Shown here: positions 1 to 58,952 of the stretch, one piece after another | Layout of the letters: the number at the start of each line of letters is the position of its first letter | Numbering within the stretch: the stretch's first letter is position 1 | DNA from: a virus | Virus record (IMG/VR): IMGVR_UViG_3300036861_000275 | Span: 28,313-92,312 of that record | DNA: 64,000 nucleotides | Reading direction: 5' to 3' (one strand) | Made by a program: the position numbers and the translations under genes | Notes under the pieces: generated by a model | Seen by the model: only the letters and a program-made list of their open reading frames with translations | Told to the model about the DNA's origin: nothing | Databases searched by the model: none

Positions 1-803
1 CCCTGTAGCCGGCGAGGGTGTAACCTATACCAGACCCTAAATCTGCGTTTCCTTGCCAGGTTAGCCAGATCCCTGACTAGGCCCTCCTCGTCCCGCATAT
101 AGGCTATAGACGTACCGGCCACAAGCACTATCGGTGGTTTGCCTGGTAGCAACCTTTTATTTATAGCCTCCGATGCTGGGGCGTCTAGGCGCAGCGATCC
201 AATGATATGCACTTTGTCTGAGTCGAATCCGTGACAAAGAGCATGCGCTAAGGACGCCTTACCCCACACCGCGACGTGGTCAGGCTTGACTAGATAACTA
301 CCCTTCGATGTTAACGTATCCCAGGAAGCAACGATGCCGAGAGTCGGGATACCTAGGCGCCTTGCGGACTTGAACAGATCCGCCTCTTGGCCGCGGTAAA
401 TATCCGTGACCGCAACTATGACGTCAGGTTGAAGCACTTTGAGCGCTTGCACGGTCAGTCTACGTACCGGGATCAGCTTTTCGATACTCCTAGCAAGCCG
501 CTCGCCGTCGCGCACATACCGATCAACAAGACTACATAGCCAGATCTCAAGCCGGAGTCGTGTTGCTCTACGCCTGCCCAGCTTCGTCTTGGCCGTCACA
601 GAACCGTGTCGTTCCCAGGCGGTATAGATGAGAGTCCTGAGAATCCGACGCCGCAGCCAGGATACCGGAGCCGGCGCTTGCACGTCTTTGTCTAACAGAT
701 GTTCCGCCGTGATGCCGGCTCCAGATAGATAGTAATCCATCTTCGCCTGGTACCAGTCGCGCTCCAGGGCCTCGCTCCCTAAGTAGACTAGAACTCGTTT
801 CAT
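1..803 (-). CDS. GT-B fold glycosyltransferase, putative nonulosonic acid transferase (3' end truncated by window edge; not in ORF track)
   Basis: Manual translation from ATG 803 (ATGA overlap with upstream stop) is open to the edge: MKRVLVYLGS...ARRLGIPTLGIVASWDTLTSKGSYLVKPDHVAVWG...IGSLRLD...VWYRLHP. The GIPT/SWD/D..VWG/HP pattern resembles CDP-glycerol-phosphotransferase/sialyltransferase-like GT-B proteins. Confidence 0.7.
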   Translation of the reverse strand, partial: MKRVLVYLGSEALERDWYQAKMDYYLSGAGITAEHLLDKDVQAPAPVSWLRRRILRTLIYTAWERHGSVTAKTKLGRRRATRLRLEIWLCSLVDRYVRDGERLARSIEKLIPVRRLTVQALKVLQPDVIVAVTDIYRGQEADLFKSARRLGIPTLGIVASWDTLTSKGSYLVKPDHVAVWGKASLAHALCHGFDSDKVHIIGSLRLDAPASEAINKRLLPGKPPIVLVAGTSIAYMRDEEGLVRDLANLARKRRFRVWYRLHPRRLQ

Positions 804-1060
804 GGCCTAGGAGGGCTATTGATTTCGATCCAGGCTCGCGCGCCCCATGGTAGAGGCTTGTTTTTGTCGTACACCACCCGACCCATCACGCCCTCGTGCC
901 CACATTGCTGACAGACGGCAGTGAGCGGTATCTGGTGGGCGTAATCCTGTTTACCGTACTTGCCATTACTGATTCGCAGCGGTGGCTTATTCTCGCCTCG
1001 CTTGAGGTTCGAGATGATGGTGTTTTTGCAGACAGTGATGTAGATCAGAAAGCTCTTCAC
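800..1060 (-). CDS. small hypothetical phage protein
   Basis: Probable GTG start overlapping upstream TGA; ends VVYDKNKPLPWGARAWIE. Confidence 0.55.
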   Translation of the reverse strand: MKSFLIYITVCKNTIISNLKRGENKPPLRISNGKYGKQDYAHQIPLTAVCQQCGHEGVMGRVVYDKNKPLPWGARAWIEINSPPRP

Positions 1061-4707: not shown

Positions 4708-5507
4708 GGCCGAACCTGATATGGAACCATAGGCTGTTCACACTCCTGTAGGCGTTTCACTCCGTGTCCTACCATCGCCTCGGCGTGACGGATGAATTGA
4801 ACGTACTCTGCCAGAGACTGTGGGTCGTGCGCAACAGCATAATCCGCGTTCGTGGATGGCGTATCCTCCAGTCGGGCATGGACTTCGATGATCTCTGCTC
4901 CGGCAGCCACAGCCAGACCACCGGTCGTACGTAGTCTAGTATGGTCACTGAAGCCTACTGGCACCGGCGCCAGCATTCGGCGTAGCTGATAGATGGCGTC
5001 GAGGTGCACGTCTCGGGGAGGCGTCGGATAGGCAGAAACGCAATGCAAGACTCCTCCCAGGTTGCCCACCTGGGCAACCGCCGATGCCACATCGTGGATG
5101 TCCAGCATACCGGTGGACAGCAGTATCGGCGTGCCAGGAAACCGGTCGTGCGCCCGAATGAAGACCGTATCCCTCGCCTCGAAGCTGGCTATCTTGAACT
5201 GCTTGACTAGCGGCGCCACCGCTTCTATATCTTTCGGGAGGTAGACGGTGCACATAAAATCGAGGCGGGTTTCGTGCGCCATGAAGGCTATTTCGTTGAG
5301 CCAGGTCCCCGGGAATTCTATCAGCTTGTAGGCGTCCAGGTACTCAGGGGCCCGCCGTCGCTCACAGATAGCCTTGGCGTCGGACGTCCATTGAAACTTC
5401 ACGGCGTCGGCTCCGGCAGCCTTGGCGTTGGCAACGTGGGCCCGCACCATGTTTCGGTCACGCATGTGCGTGCTGCCGACTTCCGCTATGATGTATGTCT
5501 GGCTCAT
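4704..5507 (-). CDS. neuB: NeuB/PseI-family synthase lacking SAF domain
   Basis: IIAEVGSTH, ADAVKFQ, KIASFE, LSTGM, LHCVSAYP, GFSDHT, IIEVH. Confidence 0.92.
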   Translation of the reverse strand: MSQTYIIAEVGSTHMRDRNMVRAHVANAKAAGADAVKFQWTSDAKAICERRRAPEYLDAYKLIEFPGTWLNEIAFMAHETRLDFMCTVYLPKDIEAVAPLVKQFKIASFEARDTVFIRAHDRFPGTPILLSTGMLDIHDVASAVAQVGNLGGVLHCVSAYPTPPRDVHLDAIYQLRRMLAPVPVGFSDHTRLRTTGGLAVAAGAEIIEVHARLEDTPSTNADYAVAHDPQSLAEYVQFIRHAEAMVGHGVKRLQECEQPMVPYQVRP

Positions 5508-18300: not shown

Positions 18301-21300
18301 TCCAATACCCATCAGCCCCCAGATCCTTCATCGTAGCCTTCATCCTGGCCATGCCTTCAGCGTTTGTGCCGTTTCCCTCGAAAGCTAGAGTGACGGCCGC
18401 CAGCCTTGACGAGACAGGAGTCCAACCTACTAACCGGCCCTGTTTCGTGTACAGTATCCGGAATGTCTCGTACCTAGGATCACGTAGTACCTGGGCCATC
18501 TCGGCGAGCTGGCGATGTCCCTCTATCTTGCGCCCTATCCAATCCAGTTTGCCGGTCTGGACAAGATCGGCGCGGATGCCGAGGCCCAGTACCTTAACGC
18601 CTTTCGGCCAGATAGCTGAGGATGGGGCCATGGACTTGAAACTATCCTCCGGGGTCGCCTGGACGGCTTGTAGATCCCAGAGGGCATCCATCGTTAGCTG
18701 GTTCGTGCGCGCCGAGGCGTCTTTGCGTTTTTTGTAATCCTGTACGCGCTCAAATAGCGCCTGACCTCGGTCCAGCACGCTCTCTCGCATGGCCGTGGTG
18801 ACTTCGAGGGAATGCACCGGATGGCCTTTGCTGATCGGGTCTATCAGGTTGTCCATCCACTGACCGTTCCCACGGTCTAGGGCCGATTGAGCCTCTCTCC
18901 TAGTCGCATACTGACCGACAACCGTACCCGAACCTGTAAGAGTAACCCAAGGCTTGGCGGCCTTTTCGGCATCGCTGACAGGCCCAAGGAAAACCAAGTT
19001 GGGCCGGTCCACCTCGACCATCGAGTACTTGGCGCCCCACTTCTTCCCGTACTTGACGGCAAAGTCCTTGAGGATCTTGTCGTAGAAGCCGCGCATGCCT
19101 TCGCCGCCAACCTCTAGCCCGTCGCCAGCTATGTATCCCTGGGCTTCGCCTACAATGCGGGCGGCTATCGGTTTCGGTAATACGTCATCGACCTGGTGTC
19201 CGACAAAACGTTCAGCGCCTCTGTTGGCTGTGCTAGCCAGCACTTTCCCATCCGAGCCGACCAGAAACTTAATGTCGCCGCCGCCGCCCTGTTTGCCCAA
19301 GACAACCATTGGCTGATGCTCGCCTCGGAGCGTGTTGGCCCACGTCACGGAATTGATCACGTGAGAGATTGAATAGCGCTCATTCTGCTGGGCGCCGGTG
19401 GTCCAGGATACCCTGTCGTAGCCGTTCTCTGCCGCCCAGCGCAACACTCGCTTGAAGGCGAGCTCGTGCCAGGTCTTCGCGAATGGAGCGTCAGGGACTC
19501 CTGTTTTCCCGACGTCTTGCAGCTTGTGAATCATATCTTCCTTCTCTACGAGGCTCTTATGCCTACTCCTGATCTCATCTGGTTCCGCCTGCTCAGCGCC
19601 ACGTCGCCCGATTAGAGTCTCATACTCTGCACGCTCTTGATCGAACGATTGCTGAAGGGCCTTAATCTGGGCGATTTCGGGTATCGTCAGCTCGCGACGG
19701 TAACCCTGCTTGCGGCCTTTCTGGTGCCAATCGGACTGGAGCTCCTCGATATGCAGCGTCCTACGACCTTCCGGATCGGTTCTGTCATTGAATCGTGTGT
19801 GCACTAGGATATTTGGTGCATCCCAGTGCGCCGACTCGAACACTACCGGTTTGCGTTTAGAGACTGTAGGTGCAGGTGATTCGTAGAAGCGGGTTCCATC
19901 CTTGACCATGTCGGCTACGTGACCAGCGTGACCCCTAAAAAACTCAAACACATTTCCATTACGATTAAGAGCTAAAACCTCGCCGCCATTATTCACTCTA
20001 CTGGCAGCGTCCTCGGCAGAAAGCCGAGCGCCTGTTTTAATAAACCCGTTGGGTCCCTGAGTCTCGGCCTGGATAATAGCGTCCATCCGATCCCGAGCTA
20101 GGTACGAGCCTATCGGGCGGCCCTTGTCATCAAACACGTCGAATACGTCCGCTCCCTGCATTTTGTTATGCCATGTAATACCCGCCGATACCGCTTCAGC
20201 AGGAAGACCCCTGATCGGCTGCTCGTCGCTGACGGAGACAGCCTGCTCGTACAGCATCATCCACTTATAGAACTCGTTCAGGTCCGATCTGATCTGGCCC
20301 TGGGCGGATTCCTGGACACCCGGGATCGGAATGCTGTATCGAATACTTCTGGCCTCATTGGTGTGGTACCCGAGCAGCAGATTAGCCTTTAACAGCTGCG
20401 GTACCCCGGCGGCGTTCTGGTCTAGCGTGATAGCAGCCGTGGCTTTAGCCTGGTCGGCCCGCTTCAGAATTGCTTCCTTGATACGCCTGTCGTCCGTCGG
20501 CTGATTTGCGTGCGTCAATTCCACCCAGCGCTCGAACTGGTCTTGTGTCATCTCTTCTAGTGCTTTGCGATTAAGCCCATGCAATTCGGCCGACTCGTTT
20601 GGATTGAGAGGGCTCACGTTACCTAGAGTCAGGAGAAGTTCACGGCCGTTCTTGGCCCCTGGGAGGACGTAAGCTGCATACTTCAATCCTTGCCCTGCAT
20701 TGGAAATATCCCTAGCGGCTTGATTCAGGTCACGACTCAGGTCGGCCACTCTATCCCTGGTCTCGAAAAATCTATCCGTCAAAGCTGCCAACCGATCTTC
20801 GACGGCCTGAATCGGCGGGCTGGGGACACCATTAATCAACATGGAGTCAGTGCCAGTGTAGAGAGCTGCCCGAAGATTTTTTAGCCCCCTATGAACCATC
20901 TGATTATCAGCACCGGCGCTTAAATCATCCATGATCTGATCGGCGCGATAGCCGCTCACTAAAGGATCAACGGCTCGCCATATATCCCCTTTGGCTGAGA
21001 CGTACTCACGATGAGCCGCTGAATGAGCCGCCTCTATGGTCTCTTTCTTCGCCAGCAATTCTGGCGGTGCCATTCCATAGACCACCTCGTCGACCTTGAC
21101 GGCGTTAGCATCCAGGAAGTTCACCACGTCCTGCTTGGTGACCGGCCCTGTCTTGTCGCGTAGCCAGTCATCCAGGCCGCTCCACTTAACTTCGTCCTGT
21201 TTGACCTCGTTCGACCTGAGAATGGCCCGAAGCTGGTCTACGCTTGCCCGCGTGGGCAGTTTGGTCTCTATCAAATCCTTGAGGCCAGAGTAAAATACTG

Positions 21301-27268: not shown

Positions 27269-29239
27269 TTACCTAATCTGCGCGGATCGGCTATTGATAA
27301 GATTGTTCACCATCCGCAGAGCCCGTGCTTGCTCGGACGGTGGCAAATCGGCCATAGGCTTGTCCCCGAAGTAGTACTTCAGGGTCTGCCGGACCGCCTC
27401 CTCTCTGCTCATGGCTGCTGGTCCGCCGCTTGGCCCTGGTTGGGCCGGTTGGCCTCCTGGTTGGGCTCCCGGAACCGCTGTAGTGCCACCGAATTCCTTG
27501 TATATGGCGTCCACGTTGACATCAATTCCGGGCCTCTTGACCGCAGATTCCCAACCTCCCGGCACCGACAAAAGGGCCTTAACCTGGTCGACACTGAGCC
27601 CCTTATCCGTGATCAGGCGTCGTACTTCGTTTCTGAAAAGGCGCTCCCCTGTGGACGATGAGCGAGGATTAGGTACGGGGCCCGGTTTCGGAGCCAGTTC
27701 TCCAGTTGGCTCTGGCGGTGTCGGGGCGCCCTTGATAAGGGTAGCCTGCTGTTTCTGCCAGTCCGCCACATGCTTATTAGCCTGCTCATAGTCCGCTTTC
27801 GCTTTCTCGATATCCTCTGGCGTCGCTCCGGAATTAGGCTTCCGAAGATTATTCAGTTCAATCCTAAGCGAGTTGGCGTGTTGCTGCGCCGTGATGAGGG
27901 CGTGTTGCGTCTGACTAATATCGGTAGCCGAGGCTGGAACCTTAGCGAGATCCTTGGTGATTTTAGCAAACTCGGCTGCGTAGACTGCGCCGTTCTTCGG
28001 CAAGGTCGGGTCCAGGCCCCTATCACGAAGATTCTGCGCAGCCATATCGGCAACAGTCTTTGAGATATGCCCAAGACCAGTGATCCTCAACAGCCATTCC
28101 GGCGGTTTCTTGCCGGCCTCAATCTGATTAAGAAGAACACTCTGCACAGCGGAGCGGCGGGCCGGGTCTTTATTGAGGATCGCATCGGCATTATTCTCTA
28201 TGACCATAGTCTGATCCAAGTCCTTGCCGATGTTCATGTTCTGGCTTGCCTTATCCGAAGCCTCTTGACGTAGCGCATCCAGCACTGGATGACTCAGGAC
28301 CCTAGATTCTTCAGCGATCTTTCGTAGCATGATCGGCGCCATCTGCCTAGCTAGATGACTGTCGATAGGGTAATCCTGGACCGCCATCATGTAAGAAGTC
28401 ATATTAGCGTCGGTCGGGTCATCGCTGTATTTCTTCTGCAACTTCGACGTTTTAGAGACCCATTCCTGGGTCGCCTGCTGGATCTTCGGGTTGTCCTGGT
28501 CTTTCGCCCAAGCCTTCAGTTCTTCCTGCTTGGCAAGATACCGATCCATCCACTTCTGTGGGTCATCGTCTAGAGCGCTCTTGGCCAAAAAAGCAGAGCG
28601 TTGCGCCTGTAGACCTTTTTCTATGTCGCCATTATCAAATGCAGTCTGAGCCTTTTCCATGGCCTCCCTGAGCTGCTTGTAACCCTCGTGGTTCCGCCGC
28701 TGCTTATCGACCTCGGCCTCGGTCATCACGTTCTTGAGTTTAAGGATGCTTTGAGCGCGGGGGCTCATAAAAAAGGAAGACTGCTGTCGGGGCGTCATCT
28801 TCTTGCGGGTCTCTTCCATGGACACATACGGCGCTCCGGCCACGGCAGGCTTCGGTGCGGTCACAGCAATGCTTGGCATGACTTCGTTTCCGGGAGCGGC
28901 GACGTAATTCCCGGCCTCCCCTCCGATTTGTGGCTGTCCAGGTGGTGACCACGGCTCTACACCCGGAGTAACCCCAGGAATGTTGGCCGCGATACTGCCC
29001 TCGACTGCGGGCTCATACAATGGCGTCGTGCTCGGTGCCCCTAAAACTATCTGTGCGCCCTCTTCTTCGGCCTGCTGCTGTTGCAGACCGAGAGCCTCTC
29101 TCTGGGTCTGAAGGCCGCGGAGCAGAGATAGTTCGTCGGCCTGACGCAGCTTGAGTCCGGTCTCTAGACCCTGGACTAACCCGGCGTTCGCCCCCAGGGC
29201 CGCCGCTCCTGAGACGCCAGGATACGCTATGCCGGCCAT
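27269..29239 (-). CDS. putative ejection/internal virion protein
   Basis: Helical, Q/A/K-rich; between nozzle and giant protein. Confidence 0.55.
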   Translation of the reverse strand: MAGIAYPGVSGAAALGANAGLVQGLETGLKLRQADELSLLRGLQTQREALGLQQQQAEEEGAQIVLGAPSTTPLYEPAVEGSIAANIPGVTPGVEPWSPPGQPQIGGEAGNYVAAPGNEVMPSIAVTAPKPAVAGAPYVSMEETRKKMTPRQQSSFFMSPRAQSILKLKNVMTEAEVDKQRRNHEGYKQLREAMEKAQTAFDNGDIEKGLQAQRSAFLAKSALDDDPQKWMDRYLAKQEELKAWAKDQDNPKIQQATQEWVSKTSKLQKKYSDDPTDANMTSYMMAVQDYPIDSHLARQMAPIMLRKIAEESRVLSHPVLDALRQEASDKASQNMNIGKDLDQTMVIENNADAILNKDPARRSAVQSVLLNQIEAGKKPPEWLLRITGLGHISKTVADMAAQNLRDRGLDPTLPKNGAVYAAEFAKITKDLAKVPASATDISQTQHALITAQQHANSLRIELNNLRKPNSGATPEDIEKAKADYEQANKHVADWQKQQATLIKGAPTPPEPTGELAPKPGPVPNPRSSSTGERLFRNEVRRLITDKGLSVDQVKALLSVPGGWESAVKRPGIDVNVDAIYKEFGGTTAVPGAQPGGQPAQPGPSGGPAAMSREEAVRQTLKYYFGDKPMADLPPSEQARALRMVNNLINSRSAQIR

Positions 29240-53879: not shown

Positions 53880-54280
53880 TGGCCAGGAGGACAGCCATCC
53901 GCGGTACACGGGTTCTCTTGATCCATAGGCGGAACTGCTTGGCATAGGGTTGACTTAATCAAGCGCCATCCCCCGTCGCTGCCGCTTAGTGGCTGATCAT
54001 CTGCGTCGATGAGGCGGGATGAGACCACCACGATACATTGCTTGATCGGATTCCAAGACGTCGGTGGCTCTGCGCAGGTGGCCACTTGTATCTCTTGACG
54101 CCAGTTCTTCATACCCTGCGGCGCAAACTCAGGCAGGATAGGAAAAAAGTCGTTCCAGACCACGGTACAGGCAATCAGTAAGACAATGCGGAATTGGTTG
54201 CGGAGCCCGGAATGTGCGCCGGGTGGTTTCTGCCGTATGAGGGCAGCGAGCCACTGCTTGCTCCATCTCCGCGACACCAT
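53876..54280 (-). CDS. hypothetical protein with Cys-containing C-terminal region
   Basis: TGATG-coupled upstream and ATGA-coupled to GT2. Confidence 0.45.
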   Translation of the reverse strand: MVSRRWSKQWLAALIRQKPPGAHSGLRNQFRIVLLIACTVVWNDFFPILPEFAPQGMKNWRQEIQVATCAEPPTSWNPIKQCIVVVSSRLIDADDQPLSGSDGGWRLIKSTLCQAVPPMDQENPCTADGCPPGQ

Positions 54281-54399
54281 CACAGAAACGCCCAAAGCGC
54301 TACAAGCAGGAACATCGCCCCTATCCAGAACGCGTGCGGCCAATCGCGGTCAGCACAACCGGGGCAGCCCTTTTGAAAGTGCAGTTTACACTTGGGCAC
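54280..54399 (-). CDS. 39-aa Cys-rich membrane peptide (probably leaderless; not in track)
   Basis: GTG 6 nt after -10 box: MPKCKLHFQKGCPGCADRDWPHAFWIGAMFLLVALWAFL. Confidence 0.45.
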   Translation of the reverse strand: MPKCKLHFQKGCPGCADRDWPHAFWIGAMFLLVALWAFL

Positions 54400-54436: not shown

Positions 54437-54772
54437 TTAAGGCGCCTGGACTTCATCAACAGGGAGTCTGAATAGATCCGCCTGGTACACTTCCGGACAA
54501 GGCGCCGAGCTTGTCTCTTCTTCTTCCCCTTGGGCCCAGTTCCAGTGGCCGGGCCAGCCCCCGAAAATGCGCACCGCTTGATAGGCTGTCTCGCAGACGG
54601 GCCCCGGAGCCGGGGACTCTAGCAGGAGTCAAAGCAGGAATTCAGCATCAGCCACGCGGCGTAGGCGAGCATCCCCGCCTATCGTGTAGGCTTCATCGTG
54701 AGCAATACAGCACGCCTCTACCTGCGGCCAAAGCCTGGCCATCATCGCGCCAGGACCGCTACAAGAACTCAT
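54437..54772 (-). CDS. phospholipase A2-like protein interrupted by in-frame TGA (recoded or pseudogene; not in track)
   Basis: MSSCSG...CCIAHDEAYTIGG...RRVADAEFLL*LLL...AYQAVRIFGG...WNW; TGA at 54629-54631. Confidence 0.75.
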
Positions 54773-54957
54773 CCTAGCGTTCCACCAAACCGCCTTGTTC
54801 CATGAACTGGAACGGCCGGCCTGTGTGAGACAAACTCCGCTGGCCCCTCGTCCGGGTCATTGGCCATCAGCGCAACCGGACACGTCAGGATGTATTCCGT
54901 CACCAGGATCTTGTTAGAGCACGGCAGACCGGAGGGCCCTGCTGGCATACCCATATT

Positions 54958-55320
54958 CTACCGCCCATCTCGCTCGGCCCGCAAGAGCTCGTGCAAGTAT
55001 CCTTGGCTATTGAAGATTATGGCACAGAGATCTTCCTGGATGTCCGCGCCGGCTCGTGGGTCTAGCACGGGCCATCCACGATGCCGGAGCCAGAGATGTT
55101 GGACGTGCCGCTTTAGTCCTTTCATGTAACTAGACAGAGGCAGACCCTTCTGCCAGTTGTCGCTGTCTCGGAGAGTCCCGTCCGCTTGCACTCGATGCTT
55201 GGCCATGTACTGGCAGAACCTTTGTTCGACCAATGGACTCATGAAGCCTTCCGGGTCATCTCGTGCCATGTCTGGACTACGAGTTGCCCCGGTCTCGAAG
55301 GTGCGGATAGTGTCGCTCAC
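54958..55320 (-). CDS. dATP/dGTP diphosphohydrolase domain (DUF5664-like)
   Basis: FETGATR, DNWQKG.P, KRH, EDLCAIIFN. Confidence 0.75.
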   Translation of the reverse strand: MSDTIRTFETGATRSPDMARDDPEGFMSPLVEQRFCQYMAKHRVQADGTLRDSDNWQKGLPLSSYMKGLKRHVQHLWLRHRGWPVLDPRAGADIQEDLCAIIFNSQGYLHELLRAERDGR

Positions 55321-55742
55321 GCCATAACCTCCGCATCTCTTTGGTGTGGGCAGGTGCCGAAGATCGACAGCGCCTTGTTGCAGTTGGAACAGAGTAGCCG
55401 GAATCCTTGCCTGGGAAAGCCCCTGCGCTTCAGCCAGGTGTATAGCGCTACTCCAGAGCCGCCAATCTGGCGTCTGTGTTCATTCCCGCCGCCTCCTTCG
55501 TGATCCATCTCCAGAAACTCTCGATGCGACTCACCGCAACAGGCACATCTATTTTCGTAGGCGGCGTGAACCTCGGCGCGCAATCTAGCCCTAGATCGTC
55601 GGCTCGCGGCTGCGCCTAGCTCTCTGGCGCGTGGCAAATCTTTCATGCGCCAACGCGTCTTTGCGGCGGCCTGACTACCTGGATGGTTGTCGCGCCAGCG
55701 TTTCGCCTTCTCGGCGTCTGTCATCCGCACAGGTCCTACCAT
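55317..55742 (-). CDS. HNH-like endonuclease
   Basis: Y..RCACCGE...LEMDH...LLCSNCN...CPH. Confidence 0.8.
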   Translation of the reverse strand: MVGPVRMTDAEKAKRWRDNHPGSQAAAKTRWRMKDLPRARELGAAASRRSRARLRAEVHAAYENRCACCGESHREFLEMDHEGGGGNEHRRQIGGSGVALYTWLKRRGFPRQGFRLLCSNCNKALSIFGTCPHQRDAEVMA

Positions 55743-56806
55743 CCCTCAGACCTTCGGTCCTGGACAAAGACAGGGGCGCTGAAGGTGATCCCGCGTTCTG
55801 GAGTTGTTATCCAGAGCGACTGCTGCGGCGGCTCCGGTTCGAAGTTGCTGACATAGGCGTACTCGTCGTAGCCCTTGAGACAGCCGCCTACCAGAAGACC
55901 GCGCGACGGCAGGAAGATGTTTTGATGCCAGTGCCCGATTAGCATGATGTCGTATGGACGGCCGGCCGCGGCCTGACGACGGGTCTTCCGATGAGTGCCC
56001 AACATCAAGGGCGCCAGCGCTCCTGAAATACCGGACCCGCCTCTAAATTGATCACCGTGGGTGAGCAGATACCTGGTCGAGTAGACACTCACGTGGGCGT
56101 CCGCCGCCTGGGAGATCTCCCACGTAATGCGGGCGTCTAACGCTAGTTCTCGTGATAGCAGCCGATAGAGCAGCCAGTCCAGGTTATCGGCGGCACGCTT
56201 CTTAGCGATCGGCTTGCGCGTCATGCGACCGTGATTACCCGGCACGCCGGCTACATGCACCCTGCCGAACTCGTTGGCTAGTAGTTTGATACCTTGAGCC
56301 ATCGGTCCAATCCAGTGCAGCAGTGAACCGAATAGAGTATCGGAGTTGGTGCGGGCTAACTCCTCATGAATGTTGCCAGAAAATATGTCCCCGCCTAAGG
56401 CAAGAAAGACGCCGTCATACTTCACGCCGCCGAGATAATGGCGCCCTAGCAGGATGGCCCTCTCAAAGCAGCGGCGCAGCCGTAATTCGGCTATCTCCCG
56501 ATTGTAGGCATTGATGCCGTCGACCTCGGCCGGGTCTACGACCTCATCGAAGTGTGTGTCCGTGATAAGCAAACACAGTGTTGCGTGATGCTCTTTCTCG
56601 GTCTTCTTAGGCGGCGCAATCCAGGTGGGTCGCCTGATGGCGGTCGCGTCCAGCATCTCAATCAGATGCACCTGCTCATCGAGGCGAGACCGTTCTTGCT
56701 CTAGGAGTCGGACGCTAGCCTTTAGGGCTGCAATCTTGCGTCCAGCCGTGTCCTGTTCGCGTTGCGCCGCAACAGCCGCTTCATGGACACCGCCCTTTTT
56801 GCTCAT
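55736..56806 (-). CDS. calcineurin-like metallophosphoesterase
   Basis: DTH, GD, GNHG, HGD, GHWH; N-terminal coiled coil. Confidence 0.88.
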   Translation of the reverse strand: MSKKGGVHEAAVAAQREQDTAGRKIAALKASVRLLEQERSRLDEQVHLIEMLDATAIRRPTWIAPPKKTEKEHHATLCLLITDTHFDEVVDPAEVDGINAYNREIAELRLRRCFERAILLGRHYLGGVKYDGVFLALGGDIFSGNIHEELARTNSDTLFGSLLHWIGPMAQGIKLLANEFGRVHVAGVPGNHGRMTRKPIAKKRAADNLDWLLYRLLSRELALDARITWEISQAADAHVSVYSTRYLLTHGDQFRGGSGISGALAPLMLGTHRKTRRQAAAGRPYDIMLIGHWHQNIFLPSRGLLVGGCLKGYDEYAYVSNFEPEPPQQSLWITTPERGITFSAPVFVQDRRSEGW

Positions 56807-57113: not shown

Positions 57114-58742
57114 CTAAACTCCCATGAAAGTGCCCGGCCCAGCCTCTCTAGGTGGCGGCGCGCTGCGCCTCATACCAGCTCGTAGCCATTCAGCGGCCGG
57201 GTACTTGACTGCGAGTGCATAGAATAGGGCGTCGCATGTGTTACTCCAGCGCCCCGAGACACGCTTGGCAGCCTCCGCGGTCATAATGATGCGCCCGGTC
57301 GATTGGTCCTTGGGATACCTGAAGCGGCCCTCTAGACCGGAGATCAAATCCCTATTCTCGCCCTTTTCGATCATCATGAACCGCCTACCGCCTTTCGCGC
57401 TCCGCTCGAAACAGGCTAGAGCCGATGCGCGTCTCTCCTCCCATCCTACCGGACCAGGCTGTAGTGATGTGCCTAGTAATTGCATCAAGACCTGCCCCGC
57501 CGTTAGCTGTTGATTCAGAAATACCGGGTCACCTATGTCCTCAAATACAAGTCCGCCCTTTGGACCTCGACCCCACGACGTCGGCTGTGCCCCGCGCATC
57601 AGTAGACCATTCTTACCGAGCCATGGCAACAGCCATCCTCGGATTAACTGCTCCATCGTCGCGTTCTCCATGACGTGGCTGCCGAGCACGTTGACGCCCC
57701 TGTTCTCCGGGAGTATCTGCATGATGACACAAGCAGGATTCGGCTCTTGATCCCACCCTCGTATGATAGGCAGGAACTTGAAAACCGGAAGCGTCTCCGT
57801 TGAAATGTGCTCTTGCGAGAAATTCGGGACGACAGGTTCGCCAACCTGGACGCCGCCGCGCCGGCCTTCCACGAGGCGCGCGACTAGATCATGCCGTCCA
57901 ATAGACTCTAGGAGTTGTTTGTTACGCTCTCGGTAAAGATCAAACTCTCTGGCGCTCTCGGACCAGGCATCACTAGTGGATTGATCAGCAGCTGTTTCGA
58001 TGGCTAAAGCCCTGAAATGAGACGACTTTTCGCCTTGTGGGATCAAGACCCTAGTCACCGACATACTCGCCATGCCAAGTTCTTCCAGCCGCTCCTCGAC
58101 TTTACATATCCAGTGGTCCTGGTCCGGGCTATTCATGGTGACCAGGATTCTCTGCCAGGATACGCCGCTCTGTCTGAGGCAGCTGCCGCCTAGAGCGAAT
58201 ACCTCTTCCGGCACACCTGTGTCCAGTCCCGCAGCAGGCGCGACCTCCTCGAGCCATAGCACCCCGCAGACGAAGCCTTGTAGCTTGTCCGAGTCGGCCT
58301 GCCGATCGAGTCCGAAGAAGTAGATATGCACCATCGGGCGCAGGCCGTCGTTGTCTAATAGGACGCACTCTCGCTTCCCGTCGTGCCAGGCCATCTTGAC
58401 ACCCTTACGTCTCATCTCCTCGATAGAGACCAGGGTCGTGCGCTGGAGGTTGATGAACGTATCCCGGACGCATGCTACCCGGAGTGGAAGCGCCCACTTT
58501 CTGCCCTCGCGGTCAATTCTGTCCGCTAACGCCACGCAGGCCATGAGCCCAGAAGCCGTCTTGCCCTCTCCTCGAGGGCCCTCCAGGATCATAATCCTCA
58601 TCTCGCCCGCGGGCCCGCTGGCAGTACCGGCTATGTAGTATTCCTGGCTGGCCGTCGGTACGAACTCGGGGGAGATGGATGGCGTCGATGCTTTCCATGC
58701 GTCGAGTGGGGACGGATTAACAGACCGTTCGTCGTCGCTCAT
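57114..58742 (-). CDS. terL: terminase large subunit
   Basis: EGPRGEGKT Walker A, WLEE Walker B, TMNSP coupling motif, IRGWD and CDAL.Y nuclease motifs. Confidence 0.85.
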   Translation of the reverse strand: MSDDERSVNPSPLDAWKASTPSISPEFVPTASQEYYIAGTASGPAGEMRIMILEGPRGEGKTASGLMACVALADRIDREGRKWALPLRVACVRDTFINLQRTTLVSIEEMRRKGVKMAWHDGKRECVLLDNDGLRPMVHIYFFGLDRQADSDKLQGFVCGVLWLEEVAPAAGLDTGVPEEVFALGGSCLRQSGVSWQRILVTMNSPDQDHWICKVEERLEELGMASMSVTRVLIPQGEKSSHFRALAIETAADQSTSDAWSESAREFDLYRERNKQLLESIGRHDLVARLVEGRRGGVQVGEPVVPNFSQEHISTETLPVFKFLPIIRGWDQEPNPACVIMQILPENRGVNVLGSHVMENATMEQLIRGWLLPWLGKNGLLMRGAQPTSWGRGPKGGLVFEDIGDPVFLNQQLTAGQVLMQLLGTSLQPGPVGWEERRASALACFERSAKGGRRFMMIEKGENRDLISGLEGRFRYPKDQSTGRIIMTAEAAKRVSGRWSNTCDALFYALAVKYPAAEWLRAGMRRSAPPPREAGPGTFMGV

Positions 58743-58952
58743 TAACGCCATTCGTCAGGATCTACATCAGAGGAACCCATCAAGAGCAAAACCGACAGGA
58801 TCAAAGCGGCACCTGTGATGAGACCGACTAGTAGTGCCATACCGTAGTCGCATTCCATAGATCCTATTCTACCTCCTCGTGACGCTCGCCGGCCCCAATG
58901 TCGTCTGAGGCCGGCGGGCCACGTGGATCGACCTATATAGTGTAACCAGTCG

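Follow-up and report, generated by a model that had tools for sequence, protein, structure and literature searches.

Background

Insertion of selenocysteine (Sec) at an in-frame UGA codon is directed in bacteria by a stem-loop, the selenocysteine insertion sequence (SECIS), which lies within the coding region and is read by SelB, as in the prototype fdhF gene of E. coli. According to the published model of bacterial SECIS elements (bSECIS), an apical loop of 3-9 nucleotides (nt) is carried by a stem of 4-16 base pairs (bp) at a UGA-to-loop distance of 16-37 nt, with a minimum free energy (MFE) of -7.5 kcal/mol or lower and a G, which G or U usually follows, as the first or second base of the loop (PMC13188914), and the minimal SECIS of E. 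coli has a GGUC loop (quoted in PMC10945757). Selenoprotein surveys make use of four criteria: an in-frame UGA, homologs with Cys, a UGA conserved across several different sequences and a structure resembling a bSECIS (e.g. PMC1088965). Here we analyse a viral gene located at 54437-54772 on the minus strand of a 64,000-nt stretch of DNA (positions 28,313 to 92,312 of the IMG/VR virus record IMGVR_UViG_3300036861_000275; hereafter, the window), which encodes a protein resembling phospholipase A2 (PLA2) and contains, at codon 48, a UGA that is probably decoded as Sec.

Among the viruses of eukaryotes, selenoproteins are exemplified by the glutathione-peroxidase homologs of poxviruses. Redefinition of UGA as Sec is noted for a few viruses (review: PMC8310308). 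A 2026 review of the prokaryotic selenoproteome and the paper describing BSepDB, with its 111 families, mention neither phages nor phospholipases (PMC13188914, PMC13326102). Full-text searches of the literature revealed no description of a bacteriophage-encoded selenoprotein or of a phospholipase-like selenoprotein family, and we know of no PLA2 of solved structure that is a selenoprotein.

Results and discussion

Recurrence of the UGA codon in a family of phage genes

The window belongs to a record of 92,312 bp with a GC content of 58% and an estimated completeness of about 80%, found in soil-metagenome runs. The gene in question comprises 47 codons, the UGA (codon 48, 54629-54631, minus strand), 63 further codons and a TAA terminator (54439-54437), and its predicted product has 111 residues with Sec at position 48. 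An earlier, preliminary description made from the letters of the window had pointed out that the frame stays open past the TGA for 63 more residues and keeps motifs typical of the family, and indeed both AYQAVRIFGG and W..HWNW are present there. It had also noted the coupling of the start codon to an upstream open reading frame (ORF): the ATG (54772-54770) overlaps, in the form ATGA, the TGA stop (54771-54769) of a 61-residue ORF (54769-54954, minus strand) that has no Pfam or PHROG match, which suggests translational coupling. The position of the start is kept in the related contigs L004, L246 and L195 and in the homologous proteins P0016 and P0031.

Further members were sought with a degenerate DNA pattern that specifies H25-D26, Y29, G32-G33, D42 and then a TGA as codon 48, and a match was counted as a true member if it was aligned to the hidden Markov model (HMM) of the family across column 48. 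The gene of the window itself matches the HMM across the UGA with E = 7.7e-31, and one scan with the pattern recovered its site alone. In total, 24 members with TGA at this column were identified on independent contigs, i.e. the window, 10 IMG/VR contigs and 13 metagenome contigs. The TGY version of the pattern retrieved 69 members with Cys (TGC or TGT) from IMG/VR, so that TGA is present there in about an eighth of the members with either Cys or TGA. TGA-bearing lineages comprise the window; L004, from a related phage of 67.8 kb with 86% identity in the domain; L246/L195/L242/L257; clade B, whose 13 contigs include a record of 108 kb with a completeness rating of 100%; L012; L181; and L163/L179. 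In a phylogenetic tree, calculated from 63 columns and weakly resolved, the distribution of the TGA label needs at least five changes, of which well-supported branches force at least two. The TGA forms are nested among Cys forms; for instance, L163 (TGA) is a sister of L023 (Cys), with a support of 95 in the Shimodaira-Hasegawa-like approximate likelihood ratio test (SH-aLRT). Other searches for homologs, namely a word-index search, tblastn against GenBank phages and searches of related loci with the alignment or with short proteins, returned nothing.

The region downstream of the TGA bears the signature of a translated sequence. Between the window and L004, the proportions of synonymous (pS) and nonsynonymous (pN) differences are 0.99 and 0.14 in the 24 codons after the TGA, compared with 0.90 and 0.09 in the 27 codons before it, and in clade B the pN/pS ratio amounts to 0.28 after the TGA and 0.20 before it. 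Judging from these comparisons, the downstream part is translated and under purifying selection. The preliminary description had allowed that a TGY codon might have turned into TGA by a nonsense mutation, leaving a pseudogene, or by an error of sequencing or assembly. A single base separates TGC or TGT from TGA, and the site is covered by the probable source run only, in which the TGA is seen at a depth of 13.6 with no variant; the contig of a second DNA run ends at 54531, short of the TGA, and no RNA run is among those listed for the record. On the other hand, the same TGA is found in 24 members, in many independent assemblies and in at least five lineages, and purifying selection acts on the codons that follow it although synonymous divergence is saturated. 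Since the TGA has been kept while the synonymous sites around it turned over, a nonsense mutation of recent origin can be excluded for practical purposes, as can a pseudogene and a faulty assembly, and we attach virtually no probability to them. One contig of the L246/L195 lineage, L256, retains the TGA and lacks 2 nt directly after it (4919-4978, minus strand), so that the downstream frame is lost (PARGRRARPG...); this copy is either misassembled or decayed.

Another conceivable explanation is that TGA has been reassigned to sense throughout the genomes of these phages or their hosts, to Trp or Gly as in genetic codes 4 and 25. Gly does occur at column 48 in a few homologs, and recoding of stop codons is known from some phages (e.g. 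PMC10607447). The codon usage of the genomes speaks against such a reassignment: TGA ends 90 of the 178 long ORFs in the window's genome, where it is the commonest terminator, as the preliminary description had anticipated in calling it a normal stop, and it is frequent as a terminator in every TGA-bearing contig. The 61-residue ORF also ends in TGA, so that a working TGA stop lies only 140 nt upstream of the recoded one. According to ARAGORN there is no tRNA in the window or in the whole genome, the relatives encode only tRNA-Met or tRNA-Glu in some cases, and neither a suppressor tRNA nor a tRNA-Sec was detected. To our knowledge, moreover, the GC content of the TGA-bearing phages (51-68%) is unlike that of the known TGA-recoded lineages. 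We therefore regard a genome-wide reassignment as hardly credible.

Relationship to secreted phospholipases A2

The window protein, read through the stop with X at that position (P0001), has no Pfam match at E <= 0.1 and no NCBIfam match, and corresponds over residues 17-73, across the UGA, to phrog_6098, a group annotated as of unknown function. An exhaustive HMMER search of 1.8 billion representative sequences gave 35 matches. The alignment of the family defines a compact protein, roughly 80-120 residues long, in which C22, H25, D26, Y29, G33 and D42 are invariant and which has a C-terminal AVRxFG motif; in the window, the codons for C21, C22, I, A, H25 and D26 (the CCxxHD motif) lie at 54695-54712 on the minus strand. 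A profile of the full-length homologs compared with microbial secreted PLA2s of solved structure identified 8k1w (E = 1.1e-5), 7ygk (5e-4), 4aup (5e-3) and 1faz (0.04), and the catalytic C-x2-HD-x2-Y pattern and D42 of the family align with the CxxHDxxY motif and an Asp of 8k1w, 7ygk and 4aup. D42, the second conserved Asp, which lies on the antiparallel helix, may be the dyad partner.

A structural model was built for P0006, a natural homolog with Cys at column 48, which made it unnecessary to choose a residue for the stop. The core of the model has a predicted local distance difference test (pLDDT) score of 94-98, and its top structural matches are again 8k1w, 4aup and 7ygk, with Z scores of 7.7-7.9 over 79-83 residues at 23-24% identity, followed by unrelated entries with Z <= 5.6; Z values below 8 do not settle the fold of a helical protein, and the E-values reported by Foldseek are only 2-5. 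No Pfam model reached the gathering score for the window protein or for 29 homologs of the Cys type and others, and the sub-threshold hits in these 29 were PLA2G12 (11 proteins), DUF1353 (9) and Phospholip_A2_3 (2), all of them assigned to the PLA2 superfamily. On the strength of fold and motif the label "PLA2-like" is reasonable, and the window protein is predicted to be a remote relative of microbial secreted PLA2s that may share their lipolytic activity.

In the model, both halves of the gene contribute to one compact four-helix PLA2-like domain: the catalytic His and Asp come from the first half, before the UGA, and the second supplies the AVRxFG motif with its invariant Arg and Gly. This arrangement bears on the question of whether the UGA is simply a stop, with a 47-residue peptide as the only product or with two polypeptides made by termination and reinitiation. 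Gene callers have indeed annotated the short form in four cases, P0007, P0016, P0018 and P0031, which are proteins of 45-65 residues from ENA and Logan contigs of 670-1390 bp and end exactly one residue before column 48, and in L003, L005 and L012 a GTG follows the TGA directly. However, the codon after the TGA is CTC, CTG or ACA, none of them a start, in the window, in L004, in L195 and in most of clade B, and the first in-frame start past the TGA of the window is a GTG at 54574, 19 codons on (a Shine-Dalgarno sequence was not sought there). Besides, the 47-residue fragment would lack half of a fold that forms a single domain. Genuine termination at codon 48 is thus a very improbable explanation.

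Residue 48 and its likely partner

The preliminary description had placed the TGA at a conserved Cys of the family. Homologs with Cys at this column do exist, as stated above, and in that respect the claim holds; a universally conserved Cys it is not, as among 24 full-length homologs collected without selection for this residue only nine have Cys and the other 15 have G, D, A, N, E or R. The occurrence of Cys is not independent of the rest of the sequence: all nine homologs with Cys48 also have Cys21, compared with seven of the 15 others (Fisher p = 0.009). In the dereplicated set used for the tree, which consists of 51 pattern-selected contigs and the Cys-bearing representatives, Cys21 accompanies Cys48 in 57 of 61 sequences, and it is present in all TGA forms. 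Because of this co-occurrence we propose a bridge between Cys21 and Cys48, which would link the two central antiparallel helices. Cys21 of the window protein would accordingly be the bridge partner of residue 48. The solved PLA2s lack this Cys pair (8k1w, for example, has Ala and Asp at columns 21 and 48), and therefore the bridge cannot be mapped to a known disulfide.

A SECIS-type hairpin downstream of the UGA

The hairpin CCCCG-GCTC-CGGGG, reported in the preliminary description as having a loop that begins with G 18 nt after the TGA, is found at 54602-54615 (minus strand). It consists of a 5-bp stem (CCCCG/CGGGG) and the loop GCUC (54610-54607), the loop G being the 19th base after the TGA, with 18 nt in between; its folding free energy (dG) is -8.2 kcal/mol and the MFE of 48 nt is -14.3 kcal/mol, values within the limits of the bSECIS model. 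The weight of this hairpin derives from comparison with the relatives only. After dereplication, eight of the nine TGA forms have a stem that starts at +12 to +14 and a loop that starts at +18 to +20, which corresponds to 17-19 nt between UGA and loop; the minimal SECIS of E. coli reportedly must lie 11 nt after the UGA (Liu and co-workers, 1998), which would agree with a stem start at +12. The stem, loop and closing strand are AACGCC/AGUUCCA/GGCGUU in L004 (dG -7.2 kcal/mol), GGCCGG/CGUGC/CCGGCC in L195 (-10.7), GAAGAGG/GUC/CCUCUUC in clade B (-7.8) or GCAGAGG/GUC/CCUCUGC in its L003 type (-10.0), GAUCCUC/UGGUUUU/GAGGAUU in L012 (-8.2) and AGCGGA/CGUGCC/UUCGCU in L163 (-5.0).

The 51 dereplicated Cys forms offer a natural control. 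Their best hairpins are weaker (median -1.3 versus -7.8 kcal/mol, Mann-Whitney p = 0.003) and scattered in position. Hairpins with bSECIS features at a spacing of 16-20 nt occur in eight of nine TGA forms and four of 51 Cys forms at dG <= -5 kcal/mol (Fisher p = 1.6e-6), and in six of nine and two of 51, respectively, at dG <= -7.5 kcal/mol (p = 4e-5), Fisher p-values which are optimistic, as the nine TGA sequences represent only about five independent lineages. A G at +19 is found in seven of nine TGA forms and in eight of 51 Cys forms, and GU at +19/+20 characterizes six of the nine TGA forms and is absent from the six commonest dinucleotides (each seen at least three times) of the 51 Cys forms.

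Within clade B, the hairpin shows signs of conservation as an RNA structure. In 11 distinct sequences all seven pairs are 100% paired, one of them through a double change from A-U to C-G (eight versus three sequences), and the other six are invariant while both flanks vary; controls with slid partners reach 53-71% pairing. Clade A has three different stem sequences at the same place. When the 12 codons after the TGA were recoded synonymously, the observed hairpin was reached by 0-0.5% of the recodings in clade B, 1.6% in L163, 2.4% in L012, 4% in the window, 8% in L195 and 18% in L004. The hairpin evidence is weaker in clade A than in clade B, because the P-x-P-G peptide encoded there favours a hairpin, with 16-34% of recodings reaching dG <= -5 kcal/mol, and because the register of the pairing shifts by one base between lineages.

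In both clade B and L012 there is an insertion of approximately 17-20 residues directly after the UGA (L002:10372-10450, L012:12731-12810), by comparison with the Cys forms and clade A. It contains the SECIS-type hairpin of these lineages, as if the coding region had been extended to make room for the RNA element. A genome-wide look for genes that combine a UGA with such a hairpin yielded three further candidates. One of them (window 19370-19372, plus strand) is antisense to a gene for a protein of 3979 residues and is probably spurious. The other two are outside the window; in one of these (G000, the window's genome, C1:13332-13334, minus strand) 168 open codons are followed by TGA and 47 more codons, with a G-loop hairpin of dG -7.0 kcal/mol 18 nt downstream, which could be due to chance.

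Decoding of the UGA

All four features used in selenoprotein surveys are found together in the PLA2-like gene, and for that reason SelB-mediated insertion of Sec is the most likely explanation. We consider it probable that the UGA at codon 48 is decoded as Sec in a 111-residue phage protein of the PLA2 superfamily. The preliminary description had reached the same reading from a single sequence, and had conceded that it would fall if the TGA were peculiar to one genome and the hairpin not conserved; the recurrence of the TGA in 24 members and at five or more positions in the tree, the existence of Cys homologs, the selection downstream and the hairpin in eight of nine TGA forms all support it.

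There is a competing view in which the UGA is subject to programmed readthrough by a near-cognate tRNA for Trp or Cys, perhaps aided by the hairpin, which would give a mixture of the 47-residue fragment and a selenium-free full-length protein. Of the stop codons of bacteria UGA leaks most, and phage Q-beta makes use of its readthrough; the conserved UGA, the selection downstream of it and the hairpin would fit such a signal as well, and no host with Sec machinery was traced. However, Trp is never found at column 48 of the homologs, and the TGA forms nest among Cys forms. Furthermore, the hairpins are distinguished by specific bSECIS features, namely a spacing of 17-19 nt and a G, mostly with a U after it, as the first or second base of the loop, rather than by mere stability, and we know of no hairpin of this geometry that stimulates readthrough in bacteria. 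Readthrough thus appears unlikely, although it is the most serious of the competing explanations.

Several observations weigh against decoding as Sec, in addition to the small number of independent lineages and the properties of clade A mentioned above. Incorporation of selenium is itself a prediction from sequence. Sec is normally found in catalytic redox sites, while column 48 is variable in the family, with its nine Cys in 24 homologs, and looks structural. The hairpin of the window taken alone is no stronger than those of shuffled sequences (71-nt fold, z = +0.46), it is short (5 bp) and the base after its loop G is C instead of G or U; no Rfam SECIS family matches the region in the window at E <= 10, and L181 has only an interrupted stem-loop. 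Finally, the host's selA, selB, selC and selD could not be traced, as the scan of bacterial genomes, the terminase and the portal did not point to any host. In that scan, bacterial genomes searched with the pattern gave 67 matches, none of which was a true member spanning column 48, so that it revealed neither a prophage nor a host. Nothing among cultured phages matched the terminase, and the portal has an identity of only about 25% to those of cultured podophages that infect Proteobacteria and Cyanobacteria.

As for the phages themselves, tRNA-Sec (Rfam RF01852) was not found in the window's genome, L004, L008 and L012, and the wing domain of SelB was not found in these four or in L003, and therefore the machinery of the host would be needed for Sec insertion. 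By analogy with bacterial selenoprotein genes, the phage would provide only the signals in cis (UGA and hairpin) and the host would contribute SelA, SelB, SelC and SelD. The complex of host SelB, GTP and Sec-tRNA(Sec) would bind the stem-loop that begins 13 nt past the UGA, with the loop G at +19, and, competing with release factor 2, bring Sec to the ribosome. Sec would then stand in for the Cys that pairs with Cys21 in the Cys-bearing relatives, and the product would contain a Cys21-Sec48 selenylsulfide between the two central helices in place of a disulfide.

A selenylsulfide is harder to reduce than a disulfide. It is tempting to speculate that in several unrelated phage lineages Cys has repeatedly been switched to Sec at a helix-to-helix disulfide, as a structural, non-catalytic residue that would enable the fold, otherwise extracytoplasmic and dependent on disulfides, to form in the reducing cytoplasm of the infected cell or to persist in the virion, at the price of tying its synthesis to the Sec machinery and the selenium supply of the host. 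We offer this scenario tentatively, as one that may well turn out to be wrong.

Genomic context

The PLA2-like gene sits in an accessory block with the terminase on one side and the portal on the other. Genes for an HNH endonuclease and an exonuclease flank it upstream within this block, and a GT2 glycosyltransferase gene is found downstream. More precisely, the genes between it and the large terminase gene (57114-58751) encode, apart from the 61-residue ORF, a 120-residue protein with a weak match to the N-terminus of dATP/dGTP diphosphohydrolase (54958-55320, minus strand), an HNH/endonuclease VII-like nuclease (55317-55742, minus strand) and an exonuclease of phrog_284 (55736-56806, minus strand; E = 1e-42). 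Immediately 3' of the PLA2-like gene there is a 39-residue ORF (54280-54399, minus strand) whose N-terminus is rich in Cys (CKLHFQKGCPGC) and which has a hydrophobic segment at the C-terminus (FWIGAMFLLVALWAFL); it is possibly a small membrane protein.

L004 is syntenic with the window at this locus. The neighbours in L004, L008 and L012, which do not point to a common function, are HNH endonucleases, GT2, proteins of no assigned function and an SU10-type adaptor, and in L012 the PLA2-like gene comes after the gene for that adaptor. No matches were obtained for the neighbours in clade B. In L181, a BrnA-type antitoxin (623-934, minus strand; Pfam E = 3e-20) is encoded upstream of the TGA-bearing member, an atypical neighbour among the loci. 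A tRNA-Met (CAT) is found a few hundred bases 3' of the PLA2-like gene in L004 (9610-9688) and L242 (722-798), with no counterpart in the window, and four clade B loci have a tRNA-Glu (CTC) several kb away. Among 20 upstream neighbours of family members there is one amidase, and most have no Pfam match, so a role in lysis as a general feature of the family is not supported by the neighbours. Judging by family resemblance alone, an action of these proteins on membrane lipids at entry or lysis is plausible.

Implications and comparison with known systems

If the UGA is indeed decoded as Sec, phages would exploit a specialised recoding system of the host with nothing but a UGA and a hairpin of approximately 17 nt. 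The gene callers applied to phages would systematically shorten such genes, as the four database entries of this family that end at the UGA column illustrate. The presence of the gene would predict a Sec-competent host and provide a new marker of host range, and the view of what this amino acid does would broaden to include a place in a bridge without catalytic function. With Sec and Cys versions of a very small protein that occur naturally, the family lends itself well to experiments.

Compared with the microbial secreted PLA2s, i.e. the group XIV bacterial and group XIII fungal enzymes (8k1w, 7ygk, 4aup, 1faz; PF09056), and with PLA2G12 (PF06951), the phage proteins share the DGCS...C-x2-HD-x2-Y...D...AVRxFG pattern. 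They differ from the microbial secreted enzymes in being shorter, in having no recognisable signal peptide (the N-terminus was read by eye) and in carrying the extra Cys21/Cys48 pair.

With the eukaryotic-virus selenoproteins, the PLA2-like gene would share the reliance of a virus gene on the Sec insertion machinery of the host. Those proteins, however, are captured redox enzymes of the host with a catalytic Sec and a SECIS in the 3' untranslated region, whereas here we see a bacterial-type hairpin inside the ORF of a phage gene from a non-redox family.

A close parallel is provided by the bacterial genes of the fdhF type, in which the SECIS inside the ORF is read by SelB. The in-frame UGA at a Cys column and the stem-loop directly 3' of it within the coding region are common to both, as are the small loop with a G, mostly as GU, at its first or second position and the spacing of 17-19 nt (allowed: 16-37; PMC13188914). 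In clade B, the loop core G-GUC-C resembles the GGUC loop of fdhF, and the scattering of Sec and Cys forms through the tree is a property of many selenoprotein families. The phage genes differ from bacterial selenoprotein genes in that no Sec machinery was detected in the phage records searched, so that the recoding system of the host would be used by a viral gene, and in that the Sec position is variable and apparently structural, instead of a conserved catalytic redox residue. What is new here, then, would be a known recoding mechanism in a new carrier, a phage, and in a new protein family, with an apparently structural Sec.

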